A stretch of DNA of 64,000 bases from Thermoanaerobaculia bacterium (GCA_036493875.1 DASXPB010000050.1:14577-78576); one strand, 5' to 3'. Positions 1 through 32,190 are shown, counted from the first letter of the stretch. Notes: a model not told the origin generated them from the sequence alone. Translations and numbers: made by a program.

Positions 1-2316
1 GGCGCCGACCAGCAGGAACCGCGCGACCTCGCGCAGGATGAGCCCGCGGACCGCGGCGGGCGCCGCGCCGAGGGCCATGCGGACGCCGATCTCCCGTCGC
101 CGCTGCGCGACCGCGAAGGCCAGAACGCCATAGATGCCGATCGCGGCGAGCAGGGCCGCGAGGACCGCGAAGGAGACCGAGAGCAGCATCGTCAGCCGCC
201 GCGTCAGGAGCGACTCGCGCACCTGCGCCGAGAGAGTCTTCAGGTCCTCGACCGGGAGCTGCGGATCGAGCCGCCGCACGGCGGCGCGGAGGGTCTCGGC
301 GAGGCCGGAGGGGTCCTGCGCGCTGCGTACGTAGAACGTGAGCTCCGAGAGCTTCGGGTTCTGCAGGTACGGGAGGTAGGCGTACGGCGTGGGTTCCTCG
401 TCGACGTCCGAGCCCTTGCTGTCGGCCGCGATGCCCACGATCTCGATGTCCGGCTTGACGTCGGTTCCTCCGGTGCCGAACCTCCGGCCGAGCGCGTTCT
501 GACCCGGGAAGAAGCGGCGGGCGAAGGTCTCGTTCACCACCGCGACCTTGGGCGCAAGCGCGTCGTCGGTCCACGCGATCGAGCGGCCCGCGCGCAGGGG
601 AATTCCGAGCGTCACGAAGTAGTCGGGGCCGATCCGGTTCCGTCGCGAGTAGGCGAGGTCGCGCGGCGGCGCGGGCCCGTCCGTCACGACGCCGCCCCCC
701 GAGTCGTTGCCGGTCATCGTCCCGATCTGCGCCGCGGTCACCGTGCGCACGCCGGGCAGCGCCTGCAGGTCCTCGGTGAGCCGCCGCGCCAGGGTCATCG
801 TCCGATCGGACGGGTAGCCGATCAGCGCCGGGGAGACCGTGAAGGAGAGGACGTTCGTCGTGTTCAGTCCGAGGTCCACGCGGCCCAGGTTGCGCAGGCT
901 CTGCGCGAAGAGCCCGGCCGCGACCAGCAGGACGAGCGTCAGCGCGACCTGCGCGGTCACGAGCCCGCTGCGGAAGCGCAGCGCCTCGCGCCCGGGCGAC
1001 GTGCTGCCCCGGCCCTGCCCGCGCAGCGTCCGCGCCGGATCCAGCCGGGCGGCGCGGTACGCGGGACCGACGCCGAAGAGGACGCCGGCGACGACGGAGA
1101 CGAGCGCGCCGAATCCGAGCACGCGCGGGTCGATCTGGGCCGCGACCAGCCGCAGCTCGGCGCCGGTCGGGAGGGCGGACTGCAGCGCGTTCAAGACCCA
1201 CGACGCGAGCAGGAGGCCGAGCGCTCCGCCGGCGATCGAGAAGACGAGGCACTCGACGACGGACTGCCGGAGCAGCTGCGCGCGCCCGGCGCCGATCGCC
1301 AGGCGGATGCCGTACTCGCGCTGGCGCGCCGCGCCACGCGCCGCGAGCAGGCCCGCGAGGTTCGAGCACGCGATCATGAGGACGAGGAAGACCAGCCCCA
1401 TGAGGGAGACGAGCGGCTTGCGCACGCCCTCCTGGAGGACGAGGCGGCCGCGCGCGCCGGAGAGGAGCTCGAGCTTCCGGTTCAGGAATTCCTTGCGGCG
1501 GACGTCGTCCCAGCCGGTCATGCGGGGGAGCAGGTCCTCGAGCGTCGCCCGGTACGCCGGCGCGAGCGACCGCTCCGCCTCCGCGATCGAGACGCCGGGC
1601 TTCAGGCGGCCGACGATCTGGAGCCAGAAGTCCTTGGGATCGTCCAGACCGTTCCAGAACGGCGTCATCTGCGGCTTCATCATCATCGGCACGAAGACGT
1701 CGACCGGGCGGCCCGCCTGGATGCCGCCGAAGGAGGCCGTCGCGACGCCGACGACCGTGAGCGCCTGGCCGTTGACGATCAGCGGCCTGTCGAGCACCGA
1801 GCGATCGCCGCCGAAGCGCCGCTGCCAGTAGCCGTGCGAGAGGACCGCCACGGGGTGTGCGCCCTGCGTGCGGTCGTCGTCCGCGCCGAGCACCCGGCCG
1901 AGCGCGGGTGGGACGCCGAGGACGCCGAAGTAGTTGCCCGTCACGAGCTCGCCCGCCGCGCGCTCGGTCTCTCCGCGCGCCGCGACGCTGGCGTCGAAGG
2001 GAAGCTCGCCGATCAGCCCGCTGAAGGCGTGCCGGGAGGGCTCGAGGAGGTCGCGGTACAGGGGGTAGGACAGGGACGAGGCGTCGTCGCCGTCGCTCCA
2101 CGCATGTCCCTGGCGCGGTCCCGGCGAGCGGAAGAGGACGAGCTGTTGCGGGTCGCGGATCGGGAGGGCGCGCAGGAGCACCCGGTCCACGAGGGCGAAG
2201 ATGGCGGCGTTGGCGCCGATGCCGAGGGCCAGCGTCGCAATGGCGGCGGCCGCGAACCCGGGGCTCTTGCGGAGCCCGCGCAGCGCGTAGCGGAGGTCCT
2301 GCCAGAGAAACTTCAT
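1..2316 (-). CDS. ADOP-type duplicated FtsX/MacB-like ABC permease, paralog P12 (C-terminus lies beyond window start)
   Basis: Absent from the ORF track because there is no stop in the window. Reverse translation from ATG 2316-2314 reads [62 protein letters not shown]..., the same N-terminal motif as the 11 complete paralogs. The frame is still open at position 1, where it reads ...[49 protein letters not shown] (second FtsX signature). About 772 codons are present. Confidence 0.85.
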
Positions 2317-2332
2317 GGGCGGTTCCTTTCCG

Positions 2333-4759
2333 TCATTCCGCGCGCAGCGTCGTGATCGGGTCGACGCGAAGTGCGCGCCGCACCGGCGCGAGGGCCGAGA
2401 GAAGCGCCACGGCGACGATCAGGACCGACGCGGCGATGAGAACGATCGGGTCGTGAGGATCGACGCGAAAGAGCTGGCCGGCGATCCCTTTCGAGAGCAG
2501 GAGCGAGCCCGCGAGGCCTACGGCGACGCCCGCCAGCGTGAGACGCAGTGTCCGCGCGGAGACCAGCCCGACGATGCTCTGCCGGCTGGCGCCGAGCGCG
2601 ACCCGGATGCCGATCTCGCGCGTGCGCTGGCCCACGAAGCCGGAGAGCACTCCGAAGATTCCGACCGAGGCGAGCAGCGACGCCAGCAGGGCGAAGGCGC
2701 CCAGCAGGCCGGCGGAGAAGCGGTGGGGCGCGGCGGAGCCGGACAGGACGCGCTCCATGGTCGCCACGCGAGTGATGGGCTGGTCGGCATCGATCCGTGT
2801 GATCGCCGCGCGGATGGGGCCCGCGAGCCGATCGGGGTTCGCGGCGCGGACGACGAGCACCATGAAGTTGTCGACGAACTGCGACCGCGGCAAGTAGATC
2901 TGCGGAGTCTCGGGCGCGTCGAGCGCGGTGTGGCGCACGCTGCCCACGACGCCGACGACCGTGCGCCACGGCCCGTCGTTGCCTCCGATCCGGACGCGCT
3001 TGCCAATCGGATCCTCGCCCGGCCAGACCCTGCGGCCGAGGGCGCCGTTGATCAAGACCACCGGCGGAGAGTCCGCGCGGTCCGCCGGCGAGAATCCGCG
3101 GCCCCGGAGGACTGGGATGCCCATCGTGCGGAGATAGTCGGCGCTCACCCCGTACCGGTCGGCGCTCGGGTCCGCGTCCGGATTGGTGGAGGGCTTGTCC
3201 TGCGCGTGGACCCCGTAGCCGTCGAAGTTGCCGCCCAGGGGAAGCTGGCTTACGAGGCCGGCGCTCTGGACGCCGGGGAGCGCGGCCACCCGCTCCAAGA
3301 CCTGGTCCCAGAACGCCGTGACCGCGGGGTCTTCGGCATAGCGGGCGCCCGTCACGTCCACCTCCATGGTCAGCAGACCGGCACTTCGGAAACCAGGATC
3401 CACGCGCAGCAGTCGGGAGGTGCTCTTCAGGAGCAGAAGGGCGCCGCTCAGGAGGATGAGGGCGAGCGCGACGTCGAAGACGACCAGCGAGCCCCCGAAG
3501 CGCCGGGCGCTTCGCCCGGCCGAGGCGCCCGAGGACTCCCGCAGCACCGGCTCGACGTGCAGCCGGCTCATCCGCATCGCCGGCAGGATTCCGAAGAGGA
3601 GGCCCGTGAGCACCGAGACCCCCAAAGTGAACAGCAGAACGGCGCCCTCCAGCCGGACGGCGCCGAGTCGCGGGAGATTGGCCGGTGCCAGGCCGACCAG
3701 GGTCTGCAGGGTCCAGGCAGCGGTCAGGAGCCCGAGCGCGCCTCCCAAGAGCGCGAGAACCAGGGCCTCCACCAGGAAGAGGGCGGTGATTCGGGCCCGC
3801 GACGCTCCGAGTGCCGTGCGCAGGGCGACTTCCTTGCGGCGGCGGCCGGCGCGCGCGAGCAGTAGGCTCGCCACGTTGGCGCATCCGATGAGCAGAACCA
3901 ATCCGACCGCTGCGAACAACGTCCACAGGAGCGGCCGCGCGCGCGCCGTCAAAGCGGCCGCGAACGGCTTCACGAAGACGCCGGTCGCCGAGTACTCGGT
4001 CGGGTATTCACGGAGGAGCGTCGAGGAGATTGCCGTCAACTCGGCCTCCGCCTGCTCCCGCGTCACGCCCGGGCCGAGCCGCGCGATCGTGCGGAGGTGC
4101 CGGCACGTGCGGCAGGCCTGCGGGAGGCCGGCGTCGTAGCCCAATGCGCCGAAGATCTCGGTGGGCTTGGTCGGATCCGCGGCGAAGACGGACTCGAAGT
4201 CGCGCGGGAGCACGCCGGCGACGAGATACGCGTTGTCGCCGAGGCGGACGGTCTTACCCGCGATCCTCGGGTCGGCTGCGAAGCGTCGTCTCCAAAGGCC
4301 GTCGGAGAGGAGCACGACGCGGTTGGCGCCGGGGACGTCCTCGGCGGGCAGGAAGTCGCGCCCCAGCGCGGGACGCACGCCGAGCAGCCGGAAGAAGGCC
4401 TGCGAGACGCGCAGTCCCTCGATACGCTCGGCGGCGGCGCCGGGGCTGGCGGAGAGCTTCGGCATCCAATAGGCCGCCACGGCGATTTCGTCGAAGGAGC
4501 GGCTCCGGCCGCGCCAGTCGCGGTACGTGGCGTAGCCAGTGTTCGTGGCCTCGCCGTCCTGGTCGCGCTCCTGGACCACCACGAGCCGGTCGGGCTGCGC
4601 GAAGGGAAGCGGACGCAGCAGCACGCCCCGCACGACCGAGAAGATGGCGGTGTTGGCGCCGATCGCGAGGGCGAGGGTAGCGACCGCGGTGGCCGTGAAG
4701 CCGGGACTTCGGCGGAGGCCTCGAAGCACGTAGCGCAGGTCCTGCGACAGGAACTTCAT
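2333..4759 (-). CDS. ADOP-type duplicated FtsX/MacB-like ABC permease, paralog P11 (808 aa)
   Basis: Track ORF 2333..4945 trimmed to the in-frame ATG at 4759: [41 protein letters not shown]. Two FtsX signatures ([32 protein letters not shown] and [17 protein letters not shown]). C-terminus [16 protein letters not shown]. Purine-rich SD-like GAAGGAAGA lies upstream. Confidence 0.9.
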
Positions 4760-4781
4760 AGGGGGTCCTTTCGGTCTTCCT

Positions 4782-7253
4782 TCATTCGGTCCGGAGCGCC
4801 ACCATGGGATCGACCCGCGCCGCGCGCCGCGCCGGGAGATAGCTCGCCAGCGCGGCGACGCCGACGAGGAGAACCACGGCCGAGACCAGCGAGACGGGAT
4901 CGTTCGCCGGAAGGCCCACCAGGAGGGCTGCGACCAGTCGCGCAAAGGCGAATACGCCCGCGGCGCCCAGCGCCGCGCCGATCAGGGCGAGCCGCGCACC
5001 CTGCGCGACGACGGCGCGAGCCACCTGCCGGGCGTCCGCTCCGAGCGCCATGCGGATCGCGATCTCGCGCGTCCTCCGGCCGACGGAGTAGGCCAGGAGC
5101 CCGTAGAGGCCGATGGCCGTCAGGAGAAGGGCGATCGCGCCGAGCGCGACGAGGACGGTCCCCGCCACCCGCACGGGCTGGAAGGCGTAGTCGAGCCACT
5201 CCGTCAGAGGCCGGTCCTCGCTGATCGGAACGTTCGGGTCCACGGCCGCGATCTCCTGCCGAATCCGAGGCAGGAGCGCCCGCGGATCGCCGGACACGCG
5301 GACGTGCGTGCGCGAGTCTACGGGGCTCTCGTCGATCGTGGGCAGCTGCCAGAAGCTCCTGTAGACGAAGGGGACCGCGGGCTGGGCGGCGCTGCGGTAC
5401 TGGGCGTCCTGCGCGACACCGACCACCCGGAGCGCGCTCCCATCGACGACCAGGGTTCGTCCGACTCCGCCGCCGTCGGGCCAGAGCGCGTGTGCGAGAG
5501 TCGCGCTGACGATGGCGACCTCGGGCGCTCCGCGGTGGTCGCGCTCGGCGAACTCCCGGCCCTCGAGGAGGCGGACGCCCAGGGTCTCGAAGTATCGCGG
5601 CCCGACCCAGTTGGTCGGGACCTGGAGGGCATTCTCGGGGCGATCCGGCTCGTGACCGGGCAGCCAGAGCGGGACACGGGAACCCCAGTACAGCTTCGCC
5701 GGCATCGAGCCCGGCACGGGCGGCGACTGTGCCGGGCTCGCGGAAACGACTCCGGGGATGTCCGTGAGTCGGCGAAGAACCTCGCGCTGGAACGCCTGCG
5801 CCTTCTGCGGGTCGTACGCCACGAGCGAGGGGCGGAGGCGCAGGAGGACGATCGGCGAGGGATCGAACCCGGGTCCCCGATACACCCGGTCGAGGCTGCG
5901 CAGCAGGAGGCCGGCGCCCGCGGCGAGCATCAGCGAGATCGCGACCTGGGAGACGACGAGGGCGTTGCGGAGGCGCGAGGAGTCCGCACCCTTCGGCGCA
6001 GACTCCTTGAGTGACGCGACGACGGGAAGCCGGACGGCCTGGAACGCCGGAGCCAGCCCGAAGAGGATGCCGGTGAGGACGGTCGTGATCGACGCGACCG
6101 CGAGGACCGCGGGATCGACGGCCAGAGCGAAGTACGCCCGTCTGCCCTCGGAGTCGGCGGAGTAGAGCGCCGCGATGAGGTCCTTGGCCCAGAAAGCGAC
6201 CAGCACGCCGAGGAGGCCGCCGAAGACCGAGAGCAGGAGGCTCTCGCTCAGCAGCTGGCGGAGCAGCCGCCAGCGTCCGGCGCCGAGCGCCGTGCGAATC
6301 GCGATCTCCCGGCGCCGGGTCGTGGCTCGGGCCATGAGCAGGCCGGCCAGGTTCGCGCAGGCGACGGCGAGGATGAGCGCCGCGACGGTCAGGAGGAGCG
6401 GCGCGACGCCGGCGATCTCGCTGCGGTACTCGGGATCCACGCCGCGTGCCGGCGTCACGTGGAGCGCCCGGCCGCCGTTCGTCTTCGGGTAAGCGACCGC
6501 GAGGGCGGCGGCCTCGACGTCGAGCTCTCGCCTCGCCTGGGCGATCGAGCGCCCCGGGGCGAGCCGCCCGAGCATCGTGACGACATTGCAGCCGCGCTCG
6601 AAGGCGTCGCAGTAGCGGTATCCGACGTGAAACATCGCCGTCGGGATCCAGACGTCCGTGGCGAGACCGCCGAGCGGGACGCCGTGAAAGTCCCGAGGCG
6701 CGACGCCCACGATCGTGAAGAGTGTCCCGTTCAGTCGAACGACACGGCCGAGAATCTGCGGGTCCGCGTCGAACGCCTGCCGCCAGAGCCCGTAGCCGAT
6801 CACCGCGACCGCGTCGCGGTCCGGCACTCGGTCCTCCTCGGGCGAGAAGAAGCGTCCGAGGTGGGGCCTCAGGCCGAGGACCTCGAAGTAGCTGGCGGTC
6901 GCGACGCTGCCGTTGATCTCGCGCGACTCCCCGCGCGTCGCGAGATTGATGGGCGCGTGGGAGTAGTGCGCGGCGAGGCCGGAGAAGCTGCGGGTGTGCG
7001 CACGGTATTGCAGGTAGTCGAGGTAGGAGAGGTTGAAATGTTCGCCGGGGTTGCGGGTCTGGTAGATCTCGACGAGCCGCGAGGGATCCTTCGCCGGCAG
7101 CGTCCGCAGGTAGAGCGCGTCGACGAGACTGGCGATCGTCGTGCTCGCACCGATGCCCAGCCCGAGGATGAGCACCGCGATACACGAGAATCCGGGGCTC
7201 TTGCGCATGCCCCGCAGAGCGAACCGGAGGTCTTGCCAGAGCCCCGTCCTCAT
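4782..7253 (-). CDS. ADOP-type duplicated FtsX/MacB-like ABC permease, paralog P10 (823 aa)
   Basis: Track ORF 4782..7619 trimmed to ATG at 7253: [42 protein letters not shown]. Signatures [32 protein letters not shown] and [17 protein letters not shown]. Ends [16 protein letters not shown]. The ATG overlaps the upstream stop (ATGA, 7250-7253). Confidence 0.9.
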
Positions 7254-9745: not shown

Positions 9746-9820
9746 GCGGCCTCCCTTCGGCGTACGCGGTCCGTCGCCGCGATCCATCGGCCCCTCGCCT
9801 CGCCGGAGCTCATCGCGACC

Positions 9821-12254: not shown

Positions 12255-12920
12255 TCAGTCGTTCACGATCCATCCATCGCGTAGACGGACGATCCGGTTG
12301 CCGTAGGTCGCGTTCTCCTCGGAGTGGGTGACCTGGACGATGGTCATTCCCTCGCCATTGAGCCTCTTGAAGAGGCGCATGATCTCCCGGCCCTGGTCCG
12401 AGTGGAGGTTTCCGGTCGGCTCGTCCGCGAGCAGGAGCTTCGGCTTCGCGATGAGCGCGCGCGCGACGCCGACCAGCTGCTGCTGGCCTCCCGAGAGCTG
12501 GTTGGGGAAGAGGTCCTTCTTGCCCACGATCTGGAAGCGGTCGAGCGTGTCCGCCACGATCGCGGCCCGCTCCGAGCCCTTCACGTTGCGATACGAGAGC
12601 GGGATGTCGAGGTTCTCGGCGACCGTCAGGTTGTCGAGCAGGTGGTACTGCTGGAAGACGAAGCCGACGTACTTCTTGTTGAGCTCGCTGCGCTCGCGAG
12701 GCTTCATCCGATGGACCTCGTTCTCGAGGAGCCGGTACTCGCCGGCCCAGTCGTGGTCGAGCATTCCGAGGATGGAGAGAAGCGTCGACTTGCCGGCGCC
12801 GGACGGGCCCATGATGGTCACGAACTCGCCGGGCTCGATCTTCATCGAGACGCGGCGCAGGACGAAGGTCTGGCCGGCCTTGGTCGCGAAGCTCTTCTCG
12901 ACGTTGGACAGTTGGATCAT
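12255..12920 (-). CDS. Stand-alone ABC transporter ATP-binding protein (MacB/LolD/FtsE-type NBD), copy 2 (221 aa)
   Basis: Only the last 221 codons of track ORF 12255..17606 are real. ATG at 12920: MIQLSNVEKSF... Walker A GPSGAGKST, Q-loop FVFQQYHLL, signature LSGGQQQLVGVARAL, Walker B LLLADEPTGNL, H-loop QVTHS. Confidence 0.93.
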   Translation of the reverse strand: MIQLSNVEKSFATKAGQTFVLRRVSMKIEPGEFVTIMGPSGAGKSTLLSILGMLDHDWAGEYRLLENEVHRMKPRERSELNKKYVGFVFQQYHLLDNLTVAENLDIPLSYRNVKGSERAAIVADTLDRFQIVGKKDLFPNQLSGGQQQLVGVARALIAKPKLLLADEPTGNLHSDQGREIMRLFKRLNGEGMTIVQVTHSEENATYGNRIVRLRDGWIVND

Positions 12921-15352: not shown

Positions 15353-17818
<2,466 letters not shown>

Positions 17819-22669: not shown

Positions 22670-25084
22670 TCACTCGGTTCGGATCGCGGTGATCGGATCG
22701 ATTCGCGAGGCGCGCCAGGCCGGCACGGACGCCGCGGCCAGACCGCTCACCGCGAGCACGAGCGTGGCGGCGCCGAAGCTGATCGGATCGACCGGCGCCA
22801 CGCCGTAAAGGAACCCGGCCAGCAGTCGCGCGGCGGCCGCGGCCAGCGCGATCCCGACGGCGAGCCCCACCAGGATCGGGGCCGCGCTCTGACGCACGAC
22901 CAGGCCGCGGACCTCCGACGGCCGGGCCCCCAGCGCGATACGAATCCCAACCTCGCGCGTGCGCTGCGCGACGGCACACGACACCACGGCGTAGATGCCG
23001 AACGCGGCGAGCAGCAGCGAGAGCGTGCCGAACAGGGCCACGAGCGCGGCCCCGGCGCGTTGCGGCAGGAGGCGCGCGGCGATGAGATCGTCGTAGGACG
23101 AGAGCTCCGTCACGGGAAGGGCCGGATCGAGGGCCCGGATCTCGGAGCGGATCAAGGCGGCGGCGGCGGTCGGATCCGGTTCGGCGCGCACCAGGAGGGT
23201 CTGCTGGTCGAGAGCCGCTGTCTGCATCTGGAGGACCGGCGCGTAGGCGAGGGGAGTGGCGGGATCCGACAGCCCGGCGAAGCGCGAGTCCCGCGCGATC
23301 CCCACGATGCGGCGCGGAACGTCGATCGTGAGTTGGCGGCCGATCGGGCTGCCGCCGGGCCAGTAGCGCTTCGCCATCGCCTCGTTCACGACAGCGACCG
23401 GCTGCGCCCCGGCACGGTCACCGCTTTCGAACTCCCGCCCCGCAACCATCGGAATGCCGAGCGTGCGGAAGTAGCCGGCGCCGACGCCCGCCACCTCGGC
23501 CTCGGGCCGCTCGCCCTTGGCGGGCGAGTAGCCCTCTGCCTCGAACGTCTCGATCGACCTTTCCCCCGACAGCGGGACGAGACCCGTCCAGCTCACGGAA
23601 GCGATGCCGGGCCGGCTCTCCAGGCGCCGCGGAAGCTCCTCGACGAACGCCGCGGCGTGGGGGAGGTCGTAGCGCTGAAGTCCGAGTCGGACTTGCGCCA
23701 GGGTTACTCCGGCGGGGTGGAAGCCGACGTCGGTGGCGAGAGCGTTCACGAGACTCCGGCCGAGCAGTCCCGCGCAGGCAAGGAGCGCGAGGCAGAGGGC
23801 GACCTGGGCGCCGAGGAAGACTGCGCGGGCGGCCGAGCGCGGCGCGATCGAGGAGGCGGTCGACCGCAGGACGGCGTCGATCGAGACGCGGGAGGCCTGG
23901 AGGGCCGGGAGGATGCCGAAGGCGACGCCCGTCAGCGCCGACACGAAGAGCGCGAAAGCGAGCGCGCGTGTTCCGAGCTCGGGCCGGAAGAGGGCAAGGG
24001 TGAATCCCCCGGGCAGGTCCAGGTGTGTCATCGCCGAGATGGTCCAGCTCGCGGCGAGCAGCCCGATGCCGCCGCCGCACAGCGCGAGAAGCACGCTCTC
24101 GGTCAGCATCTGGCCGACCAGCCGTCCCTTCGACGCGCCGAGCGCGCGGCGGATCGCGATCTCCCGCGCGCGGCCCGCGGCGCGCGCGAGCAGGAGGTTC
24201 GCCAGGTTCGCGCAGGCGATCAGGAGCGCCGCCGCAACGGCGGCGGCGAGGATACCGAAGAGCTGGCCCGGCGAGGGCTCGTTTCCGAGGCCGGCCGCCA
24301 CGCGCAGGGTCGGCACCAACGACCAGGGGGCGGCGTCGAACTCCTCGCCGTGCGCCGCCGCGTCCCGCGCGAGGATCGTCACGACCGCCGCGCGGGCTCC
24401 CGAGAGGGTCACACCCGGCTCGAGCCGCCCGAAGGGCCTCAGCCAGCCCCAGTGGCGCGATTCGATGTTGAGCCGGGCGAGGCCGCCCGTGGCGAGGCTC
24501 GGCATCGCGCCGATGGTGACCCAGAGATCGGGGTAGTCGCCGAACCGCACTCCGCGGAAGCCCTCGGGGGCGATCCCGATGACCGTGAACGGGACGCCGT
24601 TCAGCCGGACCGACCGGCCGAGAACGGAGGCGTCCGCGCCGAACTGGCTGCGCCACAGAGAGTGGGACAGGACGACGACGGGATGTCCTGGCCCCTCCTC
24701 GGAGGGCCCGAAGAACCGGCCCAGGGCTGGCCGAGCCTGGAGCACGTCGAAGTAGTTGCCGGACGCGAGCGCGCCGCCGACGATGCTCGGCTCGCCCGAG
24801 CCCGTCAGGCTCATCGCGCGAGTCTGCGACGCCGCCAGCCGCAGCGTCCCTCGCGCGTCGGCGGCGAGGGTGCGGTACTGGGGATAGGAAACGGTCTCGC
24901 CCTTCAGGTTCACGAGCGCGGCGGGCGCCCCCACCGCCGGGAGCGGGCGGAGGACGACGGCGTCCATCAGGCTGAAGATCGCGGTGTTGGCGCCGATGCC
25001 GAGCCCCAGCATCAGGATCGCCGCTGCGGAAAACCCGGGCGCACGGCGGAGCGTCCGGAACGCGTGGCGAACGGTCGGTCCCAT
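22670..25084 (-). CDS. ADOP-type duplicated FtsX/MacB-like ABC permease, paralog P3 (804 aa, divergent N-terminal motif)
   Basis: Track ORF 22670..27229 (1519 aa) trimmed to ATG at 25084: [38 protein letters not shown]. Signatures [32 protein letters not shown] and [17 protein letters not shown]. Ends [16 protein letters not shown]. The upstream part of the long ORF overlaps P2 out of frame. Confidence 0.88.
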
Positions 25085-25086
25085 GG

Positions 25087-27516
25087 TCAGACCTCCACCC
25101 TCAGGGCCTCCTGGGGATCGAGGTTCGCCGCGCGCCGCGCCGGGATCGCGCACGCGAGCAGCGCGACGAGCAGGAGCAGCACGCCGACGACGGCGAGTGT
25201 CACCGGATCGTGCGTGCGCGTCTCGAAGAGGACGCTCGACAGGACCCGGGAGAGCGCGAGCGCGGCGACGAGCCCGAGGGCGAGACCCGAGAGCGCCAGG
25301 GCCATGCCCTCGCGGAGCACGAGCCGACGCACCGCCGCGCGGTCCGCGCCGAGCGCGATCCGCACGCCGATCTCCCGCGTGCGCCGCGCGACCGAAAAGG
25401 AGATCACGCCGTAGACGCCGATGGCCGCGAGCAGCAGGGCCGCGGCGCCGAACACGCCGACGAGGAGGGTCAGGAAGCGCGGACCCGCGACCGTCTCGGC
25501 GACCACCTCCGTGAGGGGCTGCATGTCCGAGATGGCCTGGTTCGGGTCCAGGCGGTGGATCGCGGCGCGCGCGGACGCGGCGAGGGCGGTCGGGTCGCCC
25601 TGCGTGCGCAGGTAGAACTTGAGCGAGCCGCGCGGGAAGATCGACATGGGGACGTACATCGTGGCGAACGGCGTCTGGCCGAGCCCCTCCTGCCGGACGT
25701 CGCCGACGACGCCGATGACCTCGAGGCGCTGCTTCCCCCCGAAGACCAGGCCCTTGCCGATGGGATCGGCATCGCCCCAGAGCGTGCGCGCGAGCTTCCG
25801 ATTGACGAGCAGGACGGTCTTCTCCGTCTCGATGTCCGAGTCGGTGAAGTCGCGTCCCCGGAGGATGGGGATGCCCAGGGCGGAGAAGTACCCCGGGCTC
25901 ACGATGATCGCACCGCCCGGCGCCTTGTACTTCTCGAGGTCGGGCCGGCCCTCGACGAGCACGGGGTAGGGCTCGCCCCCGCCGTGCAGCGGGAGGGTCT
26001 TGCTGAGGCCCGCCGCGGCGACGCCGGGGAGGGCGCGGAGCGCCGCGAGCATCCGCGCGCGGTACGGCCCGTCCTTCTCCGCGTTGTACACGTCCGACGG
26101 CACGACGACCGAGAGCGTCAGCACGGATTCCGCGCGGAGGCCCGGGTCCGCGTGAGTCAGGCGCCAGAAGCTGCGCACGAGGAGTCCGGCGCCGACGAGG
26201 AGCGCGACGGCGAGCGTGATCTCGCCGACGACCAGCCCTCGCCGCAGCGAGCGCGCGGCGCGGGAGTCGGTGCCTCCGCGGGCACCGGAGCCCTCGAGAG
26301 CACCGCGCACGCTGCCGCGAGCGGCGGCGAGCGCGGGGAGCAGGCCGAACGCGATGCCGGTCGCGACGGAGAGGAGGACGGCGAAGAGAACGACGCCGGA
26401 GTCCATGCGGATCCCCGAGGCGCGGGGGACGTGACCGCCGGCGAAACTCATCAGCCCGTCGATCCCCCAGCGGGCGAGGAGCAGGCCGAGCAGGCCGCCG
26501 GTGAAGGACAGCAGCAGGCTCTCGGTGAGCAGCTGCCGGACCAGGCGGCCGCGCCCGGCGCCGAGCGCCGCGCGGATGGCGATCTCGCGCCGGCGCACGC
26601 TCGCGCGGGCGAGCAGCAGGTTGGCGACGTTGACGCAGCCGATCAGCAGGACGAGGGAGACCGCGCCGAGGAGGAGGGCGATCGGCTTGCGGACGTCGCC
26701 GGTCACGGCGGTCGCGAGCGGAACGACGAGCGCGTGCTCGAAGCCCTTGTTGCTGTCCGGGTATTGCTGCGCGAGCCGCGCATAGAGCGCCTCGATGCCC
26801 GCGCGCGCCTGCGGGAGCGTCGCCCCGGGCGCCAGCCGCCCGACGACGTCGAGCCAGCGGATCTCGCGCCGGTGCGGCGTCGAGTCCTCGCCCAGGTTGG
26901 AGAGCGGCATCCAGAGGTCGACCTCGGCCGACGGGAACTCGAAGCCCGGCGGCATCACGCCGACGACCTCGAACGGCGTCCCATCGAGGACGAGCGGCCG
27001 GCCGATCATCGAGCGGTCCCCGCCGAAGCGGCGCTTCCAGAGCGACGTCGAGATGACCGCGACGTGATTCTTGCCCTCCCGGTCGTCGTCCGCGGTCAGG
27101 AACCGCCCCGCGGCGGCCGGCATCCCGAGCGTCTCGAAGAATGCTCCGTCGACATTGGCGGCCGGCAGCCGCTCGGGCTCCCCGGCGCCGGTCAACGAGG
27201 CCGTGGAGAGCCCGGGGAAGTACGTCCACGCCGACGCCGAGGCGAGTCCCGGGTGCGCGGCCTTCAGGTCCTCGATGTCCTGAGGCGAGAACGTCGGGCG
27301 CGCGACGACCGTGTCGGGACGGACGTGTCCGATGCGGACGAGACGGTCGGGGTCGCGGAAGGGGAGCGGTCGGAGCAGGACGCCGTTCGCGATGCTGAAG
27401 ATCGCCACCACCGATCCGATGCCGAGCGCGAGCGTCGCGAGAACCAGGGCGGTGAACCCGGGATTCTTGGCAAAGGCGCGCCGTGCGTAACGGAGGTCGT
27501 CCATCAGCGTGGTCAT
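25087..27516 (-). CDS. ADOP-type duplicated FtsX/MacB-like ABC permease, paralog P2 (809 aa)
   Basis: Track ORF 25087..27693 trimmed to ATG at 27516: [41 protein letters not shown]. Signatures [32 protein letters not shown] and [17 protein letters not shown]. Ends ARRAANLDPQEALRVEV. Strong GAAGGAGGA SD upstream. Confidence 0.9.
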   Translation of the reverse strand: MTTLMDDLRYARRAFAKNPGFTALVLATLALGIGSVVAIFSIANGVLLRPLPFRDPDRLVRIGHVRPDTVVARPTFSPQDIEDLKAAHPGLASASAWTYFPGLSTASLTGAGEPERLPAANVDGAFFETLGMPAAAGRFLTADDDREGKNHVAVISTSLWKRRFGGDRSMIGRPLVLDGTPFEVVGVMPPGFEFPSAEVDLWMPLSNLGEDSTPHRREIRWLDVVGRLAPGATLPQARAGIEALYARLAQQYPDSNKGFEHALVVPLATAVTGDVRKPIALLLGAVSLVLLIGCVNVANLLLARASVRRREIAIRAALGAGRGRLVRQLLTESLLLSFTGGLLGLLLARWGIDGLMSFAGGHVPRASGIRMDSGVVLFAVLLSVATGIAFGLLPALAAARGSVRGALEGSGARGGTDSRAARSLRRGLVVGEITLAVALLVGAGLLVRSFWRLTHADPGLRAESVLTLSVVVPSDVYNAEKDGPYRARMLAALRALPGVAAAGLSKTLPLHGGGEPYPVLVEGRPDLEKYKAPGGAIIVSPGYFSALGIPILRGRDFTDSDIETEKTVLLVNRKLARTLWGDADPIGKGLVFGGKQRLEVIGVVGDVRQEGLGQTPFATMYVPMSIFPRGSLKFYLRTQGDPTALAASARAAIHRLDPNQAISDMQPLTEVVAETVAGPRFLTLLVGVFGAAALLLAAIGVYGVISFSVARRTREIGVRIALGADRAAVRRLVLREGMALALSGLALGLVAALALSRVLSSVLFETRTHDPVTLAVVGVLLLLVALLACAIPARRAANLDPQEALRVEV

Positions 27517-27556: not shown

Positions 27557-30118
27557 TCATTCGGTGCGTAGGGCGACGATCGGATCGACCCGCGCCGCGC
27601 GGCGGGCGGGGAGAAACGCGGCCAGCGCGGCGATCGCCAGAAGGAGAGCCGACACCGAGAGCAGCGTGACGGGATCGTCGGCGCGGATGCCATAGACCAT
27701 GCTCGCGACGGTCCGGCCGAGCGCGAGGGACGCGCCCAGACCCAGGATCAGGCCGAGCGCCGCCGGTCGCATCCCCTGCGCGACGATCATGCGGACCACG
27801 TCGTCCCCGCGGGCGCCGAGCGCCATTCGGATTCCGATCTCGTTGGTGCGCTGCGCGACCGAGTACGCCAGGATGCCGAACAGGCCGATCGCGGCGAGGG
27901 CGAGCGCCAGCGCACCGAAGAACGTCAGAATCTCCGCGTACACGCGCTCGCGGGCCAGGGTCGACCGCGACCGCGCCGTCTGGGTCCCGATCTCGGTGAC
28001 GGGGAGATTGGGGTCCAGATCCCTCACGGCGGCCTGCACGCCGGCAGCCAGGCTCGCCGGGTCCTGAGCGGAACGGAGCGCGAAGTACATCTCGTCGACC
28101 ATGTCGGACTCCGACTCCTGACGCCAGGGCGTGTAGAGCAGCGGCGCAATCTCGCTCCGCTGGTTCTCGTACTTCGTGTCGGCGACGACTCCGACGATCT
28201 CGACTTCGCGTTTCTCGTCGGCGTCCTGGATCCGCTGGCCGACCGGGTCGGCGTTCGGAAAGTAGCGGCGCACGAACTCCTGATTGACGACGGCGACGCC
28301 CGGCGCCTTCTCGCCGTCGCGGGCGTCGAAGGCGCGTCCCCGGAGCTTCGGGATCTCGAGGGCCTGAAAGTAGTTCTCGCGGATCGCCTGCCGGTTGACG
28401 TTGTGGAACGGGGCGGTCTGGGCGTTCTCTCCCGGCAGCAGGACGTTGACGTTCCAGCTGTACTCGGCGATTGGAGGAATGCGGCTGAACGTCGCCTCGC
28501 GCACGCCCGGCAAAGCGTCCAGCCGCGCCAGGAGGCGGTCGTCGAACTGCAGGAGGCGCGCGCCGGTGTATCCGACCTGCCCCGGCCGGAGCGTGAAGAC
28601 GAGCAGCTGTTCCTGGTTGAAGCCGAGGGGGACACGGCTCAGGTTGTGGAGGGTTCGGAGCAGCAGTCCCGCGCCCGCGAGGAGGAGCACGGACAGGGCG
28701 ACCTGAACGACCACCAGCCCGCCTCCGAGGCGGGTGCGTGTCACGGTGCGGCGGTTCTGTTTGAGCGCGGTGACCAGGTCAATGTCGCTCGCGCGCCAGG
28801 CGGGAGCCGATCCGAAGAGCAGAGCGGTCAGTCCGGTCAGCCCCACGGTGAAGCCGAGGACGGACCAGGTCAGCCCGCCCGAGATGCCGCTCGGAAGAAT
28901 CCCGACTTCGCCTTCGGAGAGCGCGGCCATAGCGCTCGTGCCCCAGAGCGAAAAGATCACTCCCGCAACGCCGGCGAGGGCCGCGATGAGGAAACTCTCC
29001 GTGAGAAGCTGACGGACCAGGCGTCCCCGGCTCGCGCCCAGGGCGAGGCGGGTGCGGATCTCGGCGGAGCGCAGCGCCGAGCGGGCGAGCATCAGGTTCG
29101 CGAGGTTGGCGCAGGCGATCAGCAGCACGACGCCGACGACCGCGAAGAGCGCCGCGATGCCGGTCGAATAGCGCTGACGGCGCTCCATCAGTCCCTGTCC
29201 GCCGGCGCGTACGATCAGCCGCGGGTAGTCCTTCGGCGCGAGGCGCGCGGGCTCGTTGTCTCGGGTAGGCGGCGGCATGACGTCCAGCGCGGCAACCTGG
29301 AAGACGCCGGCGAGGCTCTCGAGCGCCTGCTCCTCCGTCGCGCCGGGCGCGAGGCGTCCCATGACGTTGAGAAACCACCGACTCCGTCCGTCCTTCGGGG
29401 TCAGGGCGCTCGCATCGCCCAGCAGGGCCGATTCGAACGCGAGCGGCACCGTGACCTCGGCGCGATAGTCCACCTGCAGGGTGCCGACGAACGCGGAGGG
29501 ATTCACGCCGACGACCGTGAACGCCAGACGGTTGAGCGTCAAGGGACGTCCGACGACCGCCGGGTCGCCGCCGAATTGTTCCTGCCAGAACCGGTGACTG
29601 ATCACGACGACCGGAGCGGCGCCGGGCCGGTCGTCGGACTCGACGATCTCGCGGCCCAGAATCGGCCGGACGCCGACGCCCTCGAAATAGGTGCCCGTGA
29701 CCGCCTGACCCCGGACGACCTGCGCGCGATCGTGCGCGACGGCCGTGATCTCGTAGAGCGGCGCGAACGCGAAGAAGTCGGCGAGCGGACCGTTCGGCGC
29801 CGCGGCGCGCGCCTGGCGCATGCGGTCGAAGACGTCGTACCGGAAGATCGACGCGCCCGTCGTGCCGGGCGGCGTCTTCGTGGAGGGGCCGCGCCGTCCG
29901 GACGTCCGGAAGGGCTCGCCGGCCCTCCACTCGAACAGGACCAGCCGCGCGGGCTCCCGAACCGGCAGCGAACGGAGAAGGACCGTCTCGCAGACGCCGA
30001 AGAGCGCGGTGTTGGCGCCGATGCCGAGGCCGAGCGTGAGGACCGCGAGCGCCGTGAACCCGGGATTGCGAACGAGCCAGCGCGCCGCGTAGCGCAGATC
30101 CTGGACTACGCCGCTCAT
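27557..30118 (-). CDS. ADOP-type duplicated FtsX/MacB-like ABC permease, paralog P1 (853 aa, largest)
   Basis: [41 protein letters not shown]. Signatures [32 protein letters not shown] and VAQRTNEIGIRMALGAR. Ends [16 protein letters not shown]. The ATG shares one base with the stop of the ATPase gene (TGATG at 30116-30120). Confidence 0.92.
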   Translation of the reverse strand: MSGVVQDLRYAARWLVRNPGFTALAVLTLGLGIGANTALFGVCETVLLRSLPVREPARLVLFEWRAGEPFRTSGRRGPSTKTPPGTTGASIFRYDVFDRMRQARAAAPNGPLADFFAFAPLYEITAVAHDRAQVVRGQAVTGTYFEGVGVRPILGREIVESDDRPGAAPVVVISHRFWQEQFGGDPAVVGRPLTLNRLAFTVVGVNPSAFVGTLQVDYRAEVTVPLAFESALLGDASALTPKDGRSRWFLNVMGRLAPGATEEQALESLAGVFQVAALDVMPPPTRDNEPARLAPKDYPRLIVRAGGQGLMERRQRYSTGIAALFAVVGVVLLIACANLANLMLARSALRSAEIRTRLALGASRGRLVRQLLTESFLIAALAGVAGVIFSLWGTSAMAALSEGEVGILPSGISGGLTWSVLGFTVGLTGLTALLFGSAPAWRASDIDLVTALKQNRRTVTRTRLGGGLVVVQVALSVLLLAGAGLLLRTLHNLSRVPLGFNQEQLLVFTLRPGQVGYTGARLLQFDDRLLARLDALPGVREATFSRIPPIAEYSWNVNVLLPGENAQTAPFHNVNRQAIRENYFQALEIPKLRGRAFDARDGEKAPGVAVVNQEFVRRYFPNADPVGQRIQDADEKREVEIVGVVADTKYENQRSEIAPLLYTPWRQESESDMVDEMYFALRSAQDPASLAAGVQAAVRDLDPNLPVTEIGTQTARSRSTLARERVYAEILTFFGALALALAAIGLFGILAYSVAQRTNEIGIRMALGARGDDVVRMIVAQGMRPAALGLILGLGASLALGRTVASMVYGIRADDPVTLLSVSALLLAIAALAAFLPARRAARVDPIVALRTE

Positions 30119-30879
30119 CAGCTCACCCGGTACCCGCTCTCCTTGAGCTGCTCCTCCGAGTGGGCGCGCTCCTCGCCCTTCTCCTCCTCGACGACGCGCC
30201 CGTCGAAGAGGTGGATCGAGCGTCCGGCGTGTTTGGCGAATCGCTGATCGTGCGTGACCATGCAGATCGTGGCGCCCGCGCGGTGCAGGTCCTGGAGCAG
30301 GCTCATCACGGCCTCGCCGTTGACCGAGTCCAGGTTTCCGGTCGGCTCGTCGGCGAGAAGGATGAGCGGCGAGCCCGCGATGGCGCGGGCAACCGCGACG
30401 CGCTGCTGCTGACCTCCCGAGAGCTGCGACGGGAAGTGCTTCATGCGGTGCGCCATGCCGACCTTCTCGAGGGACTCCTGCACGCGCTTCTTGCGCTCGT
30501 GCGCCGGCATCCCGCGGTAGGTCAGCGGCAGCTCCACGTTCTCGTACACCGAGAGGTCGCCGATCAGGTTGAAGCTCTGGAAGATGAAGCCGATCTCGCG
30601 GTTGCGGATGCGCGCCCGCTCCGACAGCGAGAGCGACTCCGCGGGCTTGCCGTTCAACCAGTACTTGCCCTCCGTCGGCGAGTCGAGAAGCCCCAGCAGG
30701 GACAGCAGCGTGGACTTGCCGCAGCCCGAGGGACCTGCGATCGAGACGTACTCCCCGTGGGCGATCTCCAGGTGAACGCCCGAGAGCGCGTGCGTCTCGA
30801 CCTCGTCGGTGAAAAACACCTTCGTCACACCGTCCAGCTTGATGACCGGATGTCCGTTAGAGCTCATGCCTTCCCTCAC
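30118..30879 (-). CDS. Stand-alone ABC transporter ATP-binding protein (MacB-type NBD), copy 1 (253 aa from GTG 30879; alternative ATG at 30867)
   Basis: Walker A GPSGCGKST, Q-loop FIFQSFNLI, signature LSGGQQQRVAVARAI, Walker B LILLADEPTGNLD, H-loop MVTHD. Unusual charged C-terminal tail EEEKGEERAHSEEQLKESGYRVS. Starts 6 nt after the stop of the adaptor gene. Confidence 0.93.
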   Translation of the reverse strand: MREGMSSNGHPVIKLDGVTKVFFTDEVETHALSGVHLEIAHGEYVSIAGPSGCGKSTLLSLLGLLDSPTEGKYWLNGKPAESLSLSERARIRNREIGFIFQSFNLIGDLSVYENVELPLTYRGMPAHERKKRVQESLEKVGMAHRMKHFPSQLSGGQQQRVAVARAIAGSPLILLADEPTGNLDSVNGEAVMSLLQDLHRAGATICMVTHDQRFAKHAGRSIHLFDGRVVEEEKGEERAHSEEQLKESGYRVS

Positions 30880-30885
30880 TTCTCC

Positions 30886-32190
30886 TCACTTCAGGCGGAC
30901 CCTGTCGTATGCGTCCCACGCGCTCATGTCCGAGAGAATCACCTTGTCGCCGGGCTTCAGCCCCTCGACGATCTCCACCGTGTTCACCGAACTCTTCCCG
31001 AGCTTGACCTTCACCCGCGTCGCCTCGTCGCCGTCCTCGTTCACCCGGAACAGGCCGACCTGGCTCTTCTCCTGCCCGAACGCCGGCCGCCCCACGTAGA
31101 GCACGTCCTTCAGCCGGTCCAGCTCGATGGTCCCGTCCACCGAGAGGTCGGGGCGGGCGCCCATCGGGAGCTCGCCCTCGAGAGTGACGTCGACGGTGAC
31201 CGTTCCGTTCTGCACAGCCGGGTCGATGCGCGCGACTTTTCCGGCCACGAGGCCGTTGCGGGTGTCGATCGAGGCCGGCTGGCCGATCTGGACGTCCTTC
31301 GCCTGGGTCTCGGCGATCTTGAGCTGCGCCTTCAGGTGGGTCGGCTCGGCGACCTTGGCGATGGTCGTGCCGGGGGCGACCTGCTGGCCGACCTGCACGG
31401 GCAGCTCCTGGAGGACGCCCGGGATCCCCGCCCGCACGTGAAGCGCCTCCTTCTGCTCCCGCTTGAGGTTCGCGAGGGCCCGAAGCTGATCGACCGTCGC
31501 CTCCTGGACCGCGACCTGCGCCTTGGCGGACTCGTCGACGGTCGCGACGCGCTTCTCCTCGATGGCGTTGCGCGTGGCGAGCTCCTCGGCGCGGACCTTC
31601 GAGAGCTTCAGGATGAGCGCGGCGACGAGGCCCTCTTTGTAGAGTCCCTCGTTCGTCTCGGCCTGCAGCTCGGCCTGGTGGTAGTCGGAGCGTACGGTGG
31701 CCGCCGCCGCCTGCTGGTCCATGACGTCGCGCTGGGCCTTCGCCTTCACGTTGGCGAGCTCGGCCTGGGCGGCGCGGAACTGCGACTCGGACTCGAGCGC
31801 CAGGCGCTCGACCTCCGGGTTCGACATCTCGACGAGGATCGAGTCGGGCTTGACCGGCGCGCCCGGCAGGATGACGAGCCGCTCCACGCGCCCGTTGGTC
31901 TCGGCGGAGATGTACCGGATCTCCTGGGGCACGAGGGTGCCGGGTCCGCGAACCTGGCGCAGCATCGGTCCCCGCTTGACCGTATCCATCCAGACCGTGC
32001 TCTTCTCGACCGTCGGCGCGGCGGGCTTCAAGCGGGAGAGACCCAGGGTGATGAGGAGAACCGCGACCGCTCCGGCGGCCGCGAGCACGAGCCGCTTCTT
32101 GCGGCGCTTCTCGGAAACGTCTTCGCGGATGATGTCCACGGGGATCCCTAAGGGCGAGAAGCGTGCCAGCCGTCGTTCATCGTAAGTCAT
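30886..32190 (-). CDS. MacA/HlyD-family periplasmic adaptor (membrane fusion protein)
   Basis: Track ORF 30886..32199 starts at TTG; ATG at 32190 (MTYDERRLARF...) is more likely. Single N-terminal TM (LVLAAAGAVAVLLITLGL). Lipoyl-like segment (GRVERLVILPGAPVKPDSILVEMSNPEV). Long coiled-coil (ESESQFRAAQAELANVKAKAQRDVMDQQAAAATVRSDYHQAELQAE...KVRAEELATRNAIEEKR). C-terminal beta-barrel/MP-like part. Sits directly upstream of the NBD plus FtsX-type permeases. Confidence 0.88.
   Translation of the reverse strand: MTYDERRLARFSPLGIPVDIIREDVSEKRRKKRLVLAAAGAVAVLLITLGLSRLKPAAPTVEKSTVWMDTVKRGPMLRQVRGPGTLVPQEIRYISAETNGRVERLVILPGAPVKPDSILVEMSNPEVERLALESESQFRAAQAELANVKAKAQRDVMDQQAAAATVRSDYHQAELQAETNEGLYKEGLVAALILKLSKVRAEELATRNAIEEKRVATVDESAKAQVAVQEATVDQLRALANLKREQKEALHVRAGIPGVLQELPVQVGQQVAPGTTIAKVAEPTHLKAQLKIAETQAKDVQIGQPASIDTRNGLVAGKVARIDPAVQNGTVTVDVTLEGELPMGARPDLSVDGTIELDRLKDVLYVGRPAFGQEKSQVGLFRVNEDGDEATRVKVKLGKSSVNTVEIVEGLKPGDKVILSDMSAWDAYDRVRLK

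Follow-up and report, generated by a model that had tools for sequence, protein, structure and literature searches.

Thirteen tandem ADOP permease genes in a conserved frame with one adaptor gene and two ABC ATPase genes in a Thermoanaerobaculia bacterium: candidates for a shared transport motor

The genome of a Thermoanaerobaculia bacterium (GCA_036493875.1) codes for a tandem array of ADOP-type permeases (acidobacterial duplicated orphan permeases, TIGR03434). Except for its distal end, the array is contained in a stretch of 64,000 nt (DASXPB010000050.1:14577-78576), which was analyzed as a whole and is referred to as the window. An earlier note on this DNA had reported twelve tandem permeases, one adaptor gene and two genes for ATP-binding cassette (ABC) ATPases, and had proposed that the permeases are interchangeable and make use of common nucleotide-binding domains (NBDs), and perhaps of one adaptor. 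This proposal is supported by comparative evidence, from which we infer that sharing occurs in trans and that the motor has a heterodimeric stoichiometry. We consider it probable, at roughly 60%, that a single motor acting in trans, possibly a heterodimer of the ATPases NBD1 and NBD2, energises a large number of pseudo-dimeric permeases, each specific for its substrate.

The window has a G+C content of 68-74% and abounds in long spurious open reading frames (ORFs); gene models were anchored on motifs. Twelve ADOP genes coding for 794-853 aa are arranged head to tail on the minus strand at positions 1-30118, the last one running off the window start. While length, strand and orientation are as originally described, the count is not twelve but thirteen. 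A contig from the Joint Genome Institute (L001) is 99.99% identical to window positions 1-11905 and extends beyond the window start, where it carries the rest of P12, a further ADOP (P13), msrB, an NtrC-type sigma-54 response regulator (RR) and a histidine kinase (HK), in this order. The thirteenth ADOP, the two-component system and the sigma-54 promoter had all been overlooked. The features are listed in the direction of transcription (MFP, membrane fusion protein; TM, transmembrane).

32154..32168, minus strand: sigma-54 promoter element (-24 TGGCAC, N5, -12 TCGC), just upstream of the MFP start
30886..32139, minus strand: MFP, the periplasmic adaptor, about 417 aa, with an N-terminal TM helix (Pfam HlyD_D23 and HlyD_3; NCBIfam RND_mfp above cutoff)
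30118..30867, minus strand: NBD1, 249 aa, stand-alone ABC ATPase of the MacB/LolD type (Pfam ABC_tran)
27557..30118, minus strand: ADOP P1, 853 aa (TIGR03434, 854 bits)
25087..27516, minus strand: ADOP P2, 809 aa (941 bits)
22670..25084, minus strand: ADOP P3, 804 aa, with a divergent N-terminal motif (806 bits)
20260..22644, minus strand: ADOP P4, 794 aa (893 bits)
17828..20248, minus strand: ADOP P5, 806 aa (934 bits)
15353..17818, minus strand: ADOP P6, 821 aa (973 bits)
12929..15349, minus strand: ADOP P7, 806 aa (983 bits)
12255..12920, minus strand: NBD2, 221 aa, the second stand-alone ABC ATPase, between P7 and P8 (Pfam ABC_tran)
9821..12250, minus strand: ADOP P8, 809 aa (903 bits)
7250..9745, minus strand: ADOP P9, 831 aa (882 bits)
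4782..7253, minus strand: ADOP P10, 823 aa (815 bits)
2333..4759, minus strand: ADOP P11, 808 aa (918 bits)
1..2316, minus strand: ADOP P12, N-terminal 771 residues, running off the window start (full length 835 aa, 888 bits)
beyond the window start, on contig L001: ADOP P13, 828 aa (950 bits)

The family assignment made in the earlier note is confirmed. The curated cutoff of TIGR03434 (NCBIfam) is 622.3 bits, and P1-P13 score 806-983 bits over their full length (profile positions 1-803). The copies scanned with Pfam (P1, P8, P11 and P12) each have two MacB_PCD and two FtsX domains per chain. The array of 13 ADOPs is not a chance pattern, because it consists of 13 intact ORFs of 794-853 aa, each matching a curated family model over its full length. 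The closest homologs carry the names Thermoanaerobaculia or Acidobacteriota. The adaptor matches HlyD-type Pfam models and both NBDs match ABC_tran; the gene content given in the earlier note is likewise correct. Some motif statements required correction. The QDLRY start had been attributed to every copy but is lacking in P3, which reads [18 protein letters not shown]. Of the two FtsX signatures assigned to each protein, E(I/L)xIRxALGA, the coupling-helix motif, does occur twice, but LLIACANxANLLLAR occurs only once per protein (in TM2).

The adaptor gene had been assigned a start at 32190. Alignment with its orthologs (418-419 aa) places the most likely start at a GTG at 32139, and positions 32154-32168 represent the conserved sigma-54 promoter element. 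The MFP is 73-78% identical to its orthologs in L002, L003 and L084 (see below) and shows a weak but full-length alignment to NCBIfam DarC. Intergenic gaps in the array range from -4 to 75 nt. The start of P1 overlaps the stop of NBD1 by 1 nt. P8 starts 4 nt past NBD2 and lacks its own Shine-Dalgarno-like motif, which most other ADOPs have. Intrinsic terminators and sigma-70 promoters were found at or below chance level in our scan, with none in the intergenic gaps of the array, which would be compatible with a single long transcript.

Related loci were collected in two samples. The first consists of NBD1-centred loci from GTDB species genomes, scanned with custom hidden Markov models for ADOP, NBD, MFP, regulator and kinase. 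It covers the loci among the matches listed, and the closest Thermoanaerobaculia genomes were added by a separate search. The second, independent sample consists of 80 metagenome loci centred on NBD2, with 10-kb flanks. A frame recurs in these loci: sigma-54 promoter, MFP, NBD1, (ADOP)n, NBD2, (ADOP)m, sigma-54 RR, HK. It was encountered in Thermoanaerobaculia, Pyrinomonadaceae, Terriglobia, Bryobacteraceae, Acidiferrales, Gemmatimonadales and Opitutia. The earlier note had brought up synteny across the Acidobacteriota; for the frame, it is kept there and outside this phylum, the number of inserted ADOPs ranging from 0 to at least 7. In 22 metagenome loci, n is 0 in six, 1 in eleven, 2 in three and 3 in one, while m is 0 in 19 of 21. 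NBD1, one ADOP and NBD2 is thus the commonest arrangement in this sample. A few large arrays (L141, L145 and L149) fill the whole 10-kb flanks. With n=7 and m=6, the window array is an extreme expansion of a common frame. Representative loci are as follows.

L002 (4.3-Mb contig): folD, MFP, NBD1, ADOP, NBD2, three or more ADOPs
L084 (closest relative): folD, esterase, MFP, NBD1, P1 ortholog, five or more ADOPs
L004 (Pyrinomonadaceae): seven ADOPs around NBD2-MFP-NBD1
L007 (Gemmatimonadales): MFP, NBD1, ADOP, NBD2, ADOP, RR, HK
L076 (Opitutia): RR, HK, MFP, NBD1, ADOPs
L008 (Terriglobia) and L009 (Bryobacteraceae): MFP, NBD1, NBD2, RR, HK

Frames devoid of a permease are part of this series. 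No FtsX-type ORF occurs within 10 kb on either side of the L008 and L009 frames, nor in the sampled flanks of L093, L120 and L130 (MFP-NBD1-NBD2, with or without RR-HK), and no permease occurs within 10 kb of MFP-NBD1 in L010 and L012. As these operons code for ATPases and an adaptor but no permease, the corresponding permeases would be encoded elsewhere. The reverse is seen in L085 (from a 9.5-Mb genome), where a PadR gene is followed by at least six ADOPs without any NBD, the classical orphan layout. This NBD-less array contains a PemK/MazE toxin-antitoxin pair (L085, 9324-9951); an addiction module is likewise present in a published figure of the ADOP cluster from Psychroflexus (PMC3914696). 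Two gene-calling anomalies were observed: one ADOP is called as three fragments in L003 (5604-8016), and two adjacent ADOPs are called as a single protein of 1606 aa in L086 (2711-7531). These are long-read metagenome assemblies, and the anomalies may be frameshift errors rather than pseudogenes or fusions.

Hydropathy and conservation mapping predict eight TM helices for an ADOP, organized as two 4-TM units. In each unit, a periplasmic domain of about 230 aa follows the first helix and a conserved cytoplasmic helix follows the second. P1 was modelled with AlphaFold2 on the basis of 45 orthologs and 10 paralogs (pLDDT 85, pTM 0.79), and the model likewise has eight TM helices and two periplasmic domains. 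It starts with an N-terminal amphipathic helix, followed by TM1, periplasmic domain 1, a long TM2, a coupling helix (351-359), TM3 and TM4. After a poorly ordered linker, the pattern is repeated, with coupling helix 2 at 758-766; the coupling helices are thus located between TM2 and TM3 and between TM6 and TM7. When the model was compared to the PDB with Foldseek, the top match was YbbP from E. coli (E 3e-20, over the whole length), and further matches were MacB, Spr0695, LolC/E, BceB, YtrF and HrtB. A PDB sequence search found no solved relative that is closer by sequence to ADOP than these. Judged by the model, the ADOP is a direct fusion of two 4-TM units, hence a single-chain pseudo-dimer. 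A direct fusion with 8 TM helices is missing from the topologies listed in a 2018 review of the MacB family (PMC5985334). The features of Type VII transporters are present (a 4-TM FtsX unit whose TM1 and TM2 flank a large periplasmic domain and whose TM2 and TM3 are linked by a coupling helix), and by analogy, mechanotransmission via the periplasmic domains is to be expected. Since a single ADOP chain has two FtsX units and two coupling helices, it would need two NBDs.

The ATPases NBD1 and NBD2 are 43% identical to each other and belong to two separate orthologous groups. Their nearest relatives in the PDB are Type VII ATPases (Spr0694, MJ0796, MacB, LolD, YbbA and BceA). NBD1 has canonical motifs (GPSGCGKST, LSGGQQQR, DEPTGNLD and VTHD), while NBD2 has LSGGQQQL, the D-loop TGNLH, and VTHS. 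The NBD2 variants are present in 8 of 8 orthologs from the genome loci and in 119-120 of the best 120 database homologs. In contrast, the D-loop aspartate and the arginine following the signature are kept in 120 of 120 NBD1 homologs and in all other MacB-type NBDs that were compared. Walker A, Walker B, the catalytic glutamate and the H-loop histidine are intact in both proteins. Both are hyper-conserved: identity to the best 120 database relatives is 83-94% for NBD1 and, with a single exception among the 120, 86-100% for NBD2. Between the window and L084, identity is 97% for NBD1 (NBD2 being outside the range), compared with 75% for FolD, 70% for the esterase, 78% for the MFP and 70%, 77% and 50% for P1, P5 and P3, respectively; two ADOPs from L084 have no counterpart in the window. 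Between the window and L002, the values are 86% for each of NBD1 and NBD2, 69% for FolD and 74% for the MFP; the esterase is absent, and no ADOP exceeds 41%. Such conservation is the constraint to be expected of a hub-like protein that has to fit many partners.

In ABC dimers, each NBD contributes its signature and D-loop to the ATP site of its partner, which is completed in this way. It is on this face that the fixed changes of NBD2 fall. The simplest reading is possibly a 1:1:1 complex, with an NBD1/NBD2 heterodimer seated on one ADOP, because the two unequal ADOP halves need two NBDs and because NBD1, one ADOP and NBD2 is the commonest layout. This layout and the fixed NBD2 signature and D-loop both fit such a complex. 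The earlier note had not taken into account that the two NBD genes may code for a single heterodimer and not for alternative motors.

The motor might instead be common to all ADOPs but consist of an NBD1 homodimer, with NBD2 being a specialised paralog whose homodimers serve a subset of ADOPs, or a regulatory one that modulates NBD1. NBD1-only loci do exist, with an ADOP within 10 kb in L013 and L076 and without one in L010 and L012. Loci from Bacteroidota and Steroidobacteraceae (L013) run ADOP-like permeases with a single NBD gene; therefore, a homodimer is sufficient in principle and a heterodimer is not required. The NBDs from Bacteroidota, of which each locus has only one, share 52-58% identity with NBD1 and a lower 48-52% with NBD2, and the catalytic residues listed above are kept in both window proteins. 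We nevertheless regard an NBD1 homodimer as unlikely. NBD1 and NBD2 co-occur, often adjacent or flanking one ADOP, in most of the sampled Acidobacteriota-type loci, they are equally hyper-conserved, and the fixed changes in NBD2 affect the very face that completes the ATP site of a partner.

The thirteen ADOPs are only distantly related to each other, with pairwise identities of 33-44% except for P6/P7 (59%) and P9/P12 (58%), from which it follows that the duplications are old. P1 is 35-39% identical to its array neighbours but has orthologs with 67-70% identity in Thermoanaerobaculia and with 56-61% in proteins named Blastocatellia, Pyrinomonadaceae, Acidoferrales and Terriglobales. Each paralog thus appears to be an old subfamily with its own periplasmic domains. 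Identities differ strongly between regions, as listed here for the 13 paralogs and for P1 versus 115 orthologs.

N-terminal helix and TM1: 62% among the 13 paralogs, 64% for P1 versus orthologs
Coupling helix 1: 57% among the 13 paralogs, 70% for P1 versus orthologs
Coupling helix 2: 56% among the 13 paralogs, 77% for P1 versus orthologs
C-terminal tail: 60% among the 13 paralogs, 77% for P1 versus orthologs
Periplasmic domain 1: 32% among the 13 paralogs, 59% for P1 versus orthologs
Periplasmic domain 2: 31% among the 13 paralogs, 60% for P1 versus orthologs

Among the paralogs, NBD-facing elements are conserved (56-62%) and periplasmic domains are divergent (31-32%), a contrast that had been predicted in the earlier note. 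By these values, the cytoplasmic face appears to be under a constraint common to all paralogs, whereas the periplasmic domains appear constrained within subfamilies but different between them. Such a pattern would be expected if the permeases had a partner in common in the cytoplasm and met different ligands on the outside. The contrast exceeds a generic property of the family because, according to the ortholog control, the periplasmic domains are conserved within a subfamily. Two other candidate patterns were considered and rejected. The ADOPs do not form two clades according to their position after NBD1 or NBD2: P11 and P13 group with P2 and P4-P7, while P9 and P12 group with P1. The low identity between ADOPs from the window and those from L002 and L003 might have indicated fast-evolving permeases, but P1 orthologs are conserved (56-70%) across the phylum; therefore, it reflects turnover of gene content among old subfamilies.

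It is improbable that only pairs encoded in cis are real, namely (NBD1)2-P1 together with the MFP and (NBD2)2-P8, the other eleven ADOPs using ATPases encoded elsewhere or none. The overlap between NBD1 and P1 and the position of P8, which is just behind NBD2 and unlike most ADOPs lacks its own Shine-Dalgarno-like motif, would fit such pairs, and both the overlap and a P1 ortholog (70%) are kept in L084. In L002 and L003, however, NBD1 is followed by a gene other than a P1 ortholog (at most 41% identity), and the ADOP types are arranged in another order. We also looked for a single core ADOP orthogroup between NBD1 and NBD2 and had to discard this idea, as the ADOPs from loci with n=1 have a median identity of only 37%. 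Frames without a permease exist, and both coupling-helix motifs are kept in 13 of 13 paralogs.

That the array is mere redundancy, i.e., tandem duplication without functional differentiation and with some copies decaying, could be suspected from the tandem layout, from copy numbers that differ between relatives and from the fragmented ADOP called in L003, but it is highly improbable given that all 13 ORFs are intact, that the duplications are old, that P1 orthologs keep 56-70% identity across the phylum with conserved periplasmic domains, and that the L003 fragments may be long-read sequencing errors.

The regulatory elements are also part of the conserved frame. In the window, only one site matches the sigma-54 consensus TGGCAC-N5-TTGC with at most one mismatch. 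It is located on the coding strand (32168-32154) and precedes the GTG start of the MFP gene by 14 nt. Such an element is also found upstream of the MFP gene in L002, L084, L004, L008, L009, L076, L026, L029, L030, L034 and L041, the last five of which include loci from Xanthomonadales and Sphingomonas. In a 280-nt zone, 10 of 34 MFP loci have a match, compared to 0.009 expected per locus (about 30-fold enrichment). A sigma-54 RR and a kinase flank the frame in loci from Acidobacteriota, Gemmatimonadales, Opitutia, Bacteroidota and Xanthomonadales. The kinase (L001, 16411-17736; L008, 13175-14485; L009, 13085-14407) has two N-terminal TM helices joined by a link of about 10 residues and followed by HAMP and PAS-like regions, and it lacks a periplasmic sensor domain. 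This topology resembles that of intramembrane-sensing kinases such as BceS, which senses how active its Type VII transporter is, and may point to sensing through the transporter. In Bacteroidota (L016-L025, L032), MFP-NBD loci have 2-4 tandem duplicated permeases of about 800 aa along with a sigma-54 RR and a kinase. In L026, L029 and L030 (Xanthomonadales and other Proteobacteria), MFP and NBD genes are accompanied by a sigma-54 RR and a kinase, the Xanthomonadales having two separate half-permease genes. In many of these bacteroidotal and proteobacterial loci, a sigma-54 promoter precedes the MFP gene. The regulatory module thus extends well beyond the Acidobacteriota.

From these data, a scheme can be proposed for the locus. 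It would represent a sigma-54-dependent operon for a Type VII (MacB-like, mechanotransmission) ABC system. Its conserved core would consist of the MFP as conduit and NBD1/NBD2 as motor, with 13 ADOP genes inserted into the frame, and this motor would serve all 13 permeases in trans; in other Acidobacteriota, the same type of motor would drive ADOPs that are scattered around the genome. Action in trans is suggested by frames that lack a permease and arrays that lack an NBD, by n, m and subfamily content varying freely, by the conservation of the NBDs and by the shared cytoplasmic face of the permeases. A 1:1 heterodimer of NBD1 and NBD2 would sit on the two non-identical halves of an ADOP. When ATP drives its closure, the coupling helices would be pushed, the stalk helices zipped and the periplasmic domains set in motion. 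Substrate in the periplasm or in the outer leaflet of the inner membrane would thereby be expelled or extracted, passing through the MFP and an unlinked channel of the outer membrane. The array would then combine one engine with permeases that differ in substrate specificity, and the adjacent NtrC-type RR and HK would control the operon. The direction of transport, the nature of the substrates and the two-component control are what we infer within this scheme. The nearest named relatives (DarBCD, MacAB, LolCDE, YbbAP-TesA and BceAB) point to peptides, lipids or lipophilic toxins on the periplasmic side.

Several observations weigh against a motor shared in trans or against its heterodimeric form. 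Neither ATPase has a classic degenerate ATP site, since all catalytic residues are kept in both, and a single NBD gene accompanies the permeases in the Bacteroidota and L013 loci. P1, which overlaps NBD1, and P8, which abuts NBD2, are possible cis-specific pairs. A single MFP would have to dock on periplasmic domains that are only about 31% identical. The combination of conserved cytoplasmic elements with divergent periplasmic domains is partly general in the MacB/FtsX family. Permease-less status refers to the sampled flanks and not to whole genomes, which may hold orphan ADOPs or other ATPases. In agreement with the earlier note, a gene for an OEP-type outer-membrane factor was not found among the window ORFs scanned. 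An OEP gene is present upstream of the frame in L008, and the outer-membrane channel for the window system may be encoded elsewhere in the genome.

It is tempting to speculate further that MFP-NBD1-NBD2 is a universal trans engine for the ADOPs of Acidobacteriota and of some Gemmatimonadota and Verrucomicrobiota, with an obligate heterodimer whose signature and D-loop face is asymmetric and which docks on the two unequal halves of any ADOP, with dozens of substrate-specific permeases competing for it, and with the HK/RR pair reading flux in a Bce-like manner and adjusting expression accordingly. In this case, it would be the first Type VII ABC system with many permeases for one motor, and it would become clear why ADOP genes have looked ATPase-less since their first description. 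This wider version is tentative, and we rate it as somewhat doubtful.

According to the TIGRFAM description, ADOPs are orphans that are not adjacent to ATPase genes. The window array, in contrast, has two ATPase genes and an adaptor gene inside the operon. The orphan label is a description of the first genomes studied and not a sequence criterion. An ADOP array as such is not a new kind of object, because the family is curated and because a 42-kb cluster from Psychroflexus torquis with ten ADOP paralogs and ATP-binding transporter genes, which is highly translated and has high protein abundance, was reported in 2014 (PMC3914696). Like the window, this cluster has tandem paralogs alongside ATP-binding transporter genes. 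The earlier statement that such an organization is unlike that of characterised ABC systems has to be relativized in view of this cluster and because multi-ADOP loci are common in the sampled Acidobacteriota and Bacteroidota. In the literature that we found, the ADOP family is mentioned only in passing. The conserved frame, the NBD1/NBD2 pair with the NBD2 signature, the permease-less frames and the sigma-54 control were not found in the literature on TIGR03434/ADOP or on MacB/FtsX in Acidobacteria.

Among characterized systems, YbbAP-TesA from E. coli (PDB 9GE6-9GE8) includes YbbP, the only single-chain duplicated FtsX permease with two periplasmic domains whose structure has been solved; it binds two YbbA via two coupling helices (PMC12646458). 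YbbP shares with ADOP the two FtsX/MacB units in one chain, the two periplasmic Porter/Sabre domains and the use of stand-alone NBDs. It has, however, 10 TM helices (including two linker helices) rather than 8, and sequence identity is 14%. The YbbAP system consists of one permease gene and one NBD gene, has no MFP and has the hydrolase TesA as a partner. A gene for a TesA-like hydrolase partner was not found near the array among the window ORFs scanned. The window (37352-39043, minus strand) and L084 (6137-7831) code for a 563-aa protein adjoining folD with a weak match to PF00756 (putative esterase), and in L084 the PF00756 esterase gene is directly upstream of the MFP gene. By analogy to TesA, a periplasmic hydrolase partner is conceivable for the window system.

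MacAB-TolC resembles the window in having a MacB-type NBD, a 4-TM FtsX unit with a periplasmic domain and an upstream gene for a MacA-like adaptor; a mechanotransmission mechanism is to be expected for the window system as well (PMC5985334). In MacB, however, the NBD is fused to the permease, which is a 4-TM homodimer encoded by one gene, whereas the window has separate NBDs, fused 8-TM pseudo-heterodimers, 13 permease genes and no TolC-like gene. In LolCDE, too, the FtsX-type halves (LolC and LolE) are not identical and rest on a stand-alone ATPase, LolD, with whose model NBD1 scores 220 bits, below the equivalog cutoff. LolCDE differs in its homodimeric LolD, in having LolC and LolE as separate chains, in lacking an MFP and in being dedicated to lipoproteins. 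BceAB-BceRS is similar in that a Type VII transporter is encoded beside a kinase without an extracellular sensor domain, but the regulator is of the OmpR type (NtrC type in the window), and BceB has one extracellular domain and 10 TM helices. DarBCD (NF038007, NF038008 and NF038010) shares the combination of an ATPase, an adaptor and a long permease. Of the NCBIfam models, DarD, the ATPase of the darobactin exporter, gives the highest score with both NBDs (about 248 bits against a cutoff of 375), and P1 is a weak match to DarB; scores are, however, far below the equivalog cutoffs (375, 450 and 700 bits). Genes for the precursor of a ribosomally synthesized and post-translationally modified peptide or for a radical S-adenosylmethionine enzyme were not seen among the window ORFs scanned. 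In MsmX/MsiK sugar importers and in group II energy-coupling factor (ECF) transporters, a single energising unit is used by many membrane components of different specificity, whose genes are located elsewhere. These are importers of other ABC types, unlike the window system. We know of no demonstration that an ATPase is shared in Type VII/MacB-like systems.

Some neighbouring genes in the window deserve mention. A BlaI-type repressor (Penicillinase_R; 35253-35678, minus strand), a BlaR1-like M56 peptidase (33334-35256, minus strand) and a secreted protein of 351 aa (32282-33337, minus strand) are encoded between the esterase and MFP genes. The C-terminal half of the peptidase consists of eight copies of a 29-residue repeat (consensus xDDLVxxRIHGVTPEFxxxLxxLGYxxL), seven copies of which are present in the secreted protein; the repeat has no Pfam match. 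This block (32282-35678) looks like an insertion because it is absent from the closest relative, L084. A cluster for polysaccharide export and biosynthesis is located at 44903-57163 (plus strand), with genes for a Wzz/tyrosine-kinase-like protein, a NusG-like protein, a UDP-glucose dehydrogenase, a Wzt-type ABC ATPase with a Wzt_C domain, an epimerase/dehydratase and a methyltransferase. In L002 and L084, a comparable Wzz/Poly_export block is found next to folD. At 59339-61975 (plus strand), the longest call is an ORF of 878 aa with an Antibiotic_NAT domain (aminoglycoside 3-N-acetyltransferase-like) and DUF4910/DUF2172/M28 peptidase-like domains; given the high G+C content, two genes may have been read as one here.

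ADOPs rank with the largest families of paralogs in Acidobacteriota, which are a dominant phylum in soil. The first description of the family came from acidobacterial genomes (Ward et al. 2009, cited in PMC3914696). Genes annotated as ADOP are numerous in Bacteroidota as well, and Dyadobacter genomes have 28-33 copies (PMC11573002). The locus described here names candidate partners for these permeases: an adaptor and two ATPases, of which NBD2 has a diagnostic signature, along with a sigma-54 promoter and a two-component system. Together with the related loci, it provides a natural series of frames with 0 to 13 permeases. If the motor is indeed shared, the shared-energiser principle of ECF- and MsmX-type importers would extend to mechanotransmission machines of the cell envelope. 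This would also be relevant to the ways in which bacteria in soil withstand a variety of antimicrobials or export a variety of products.

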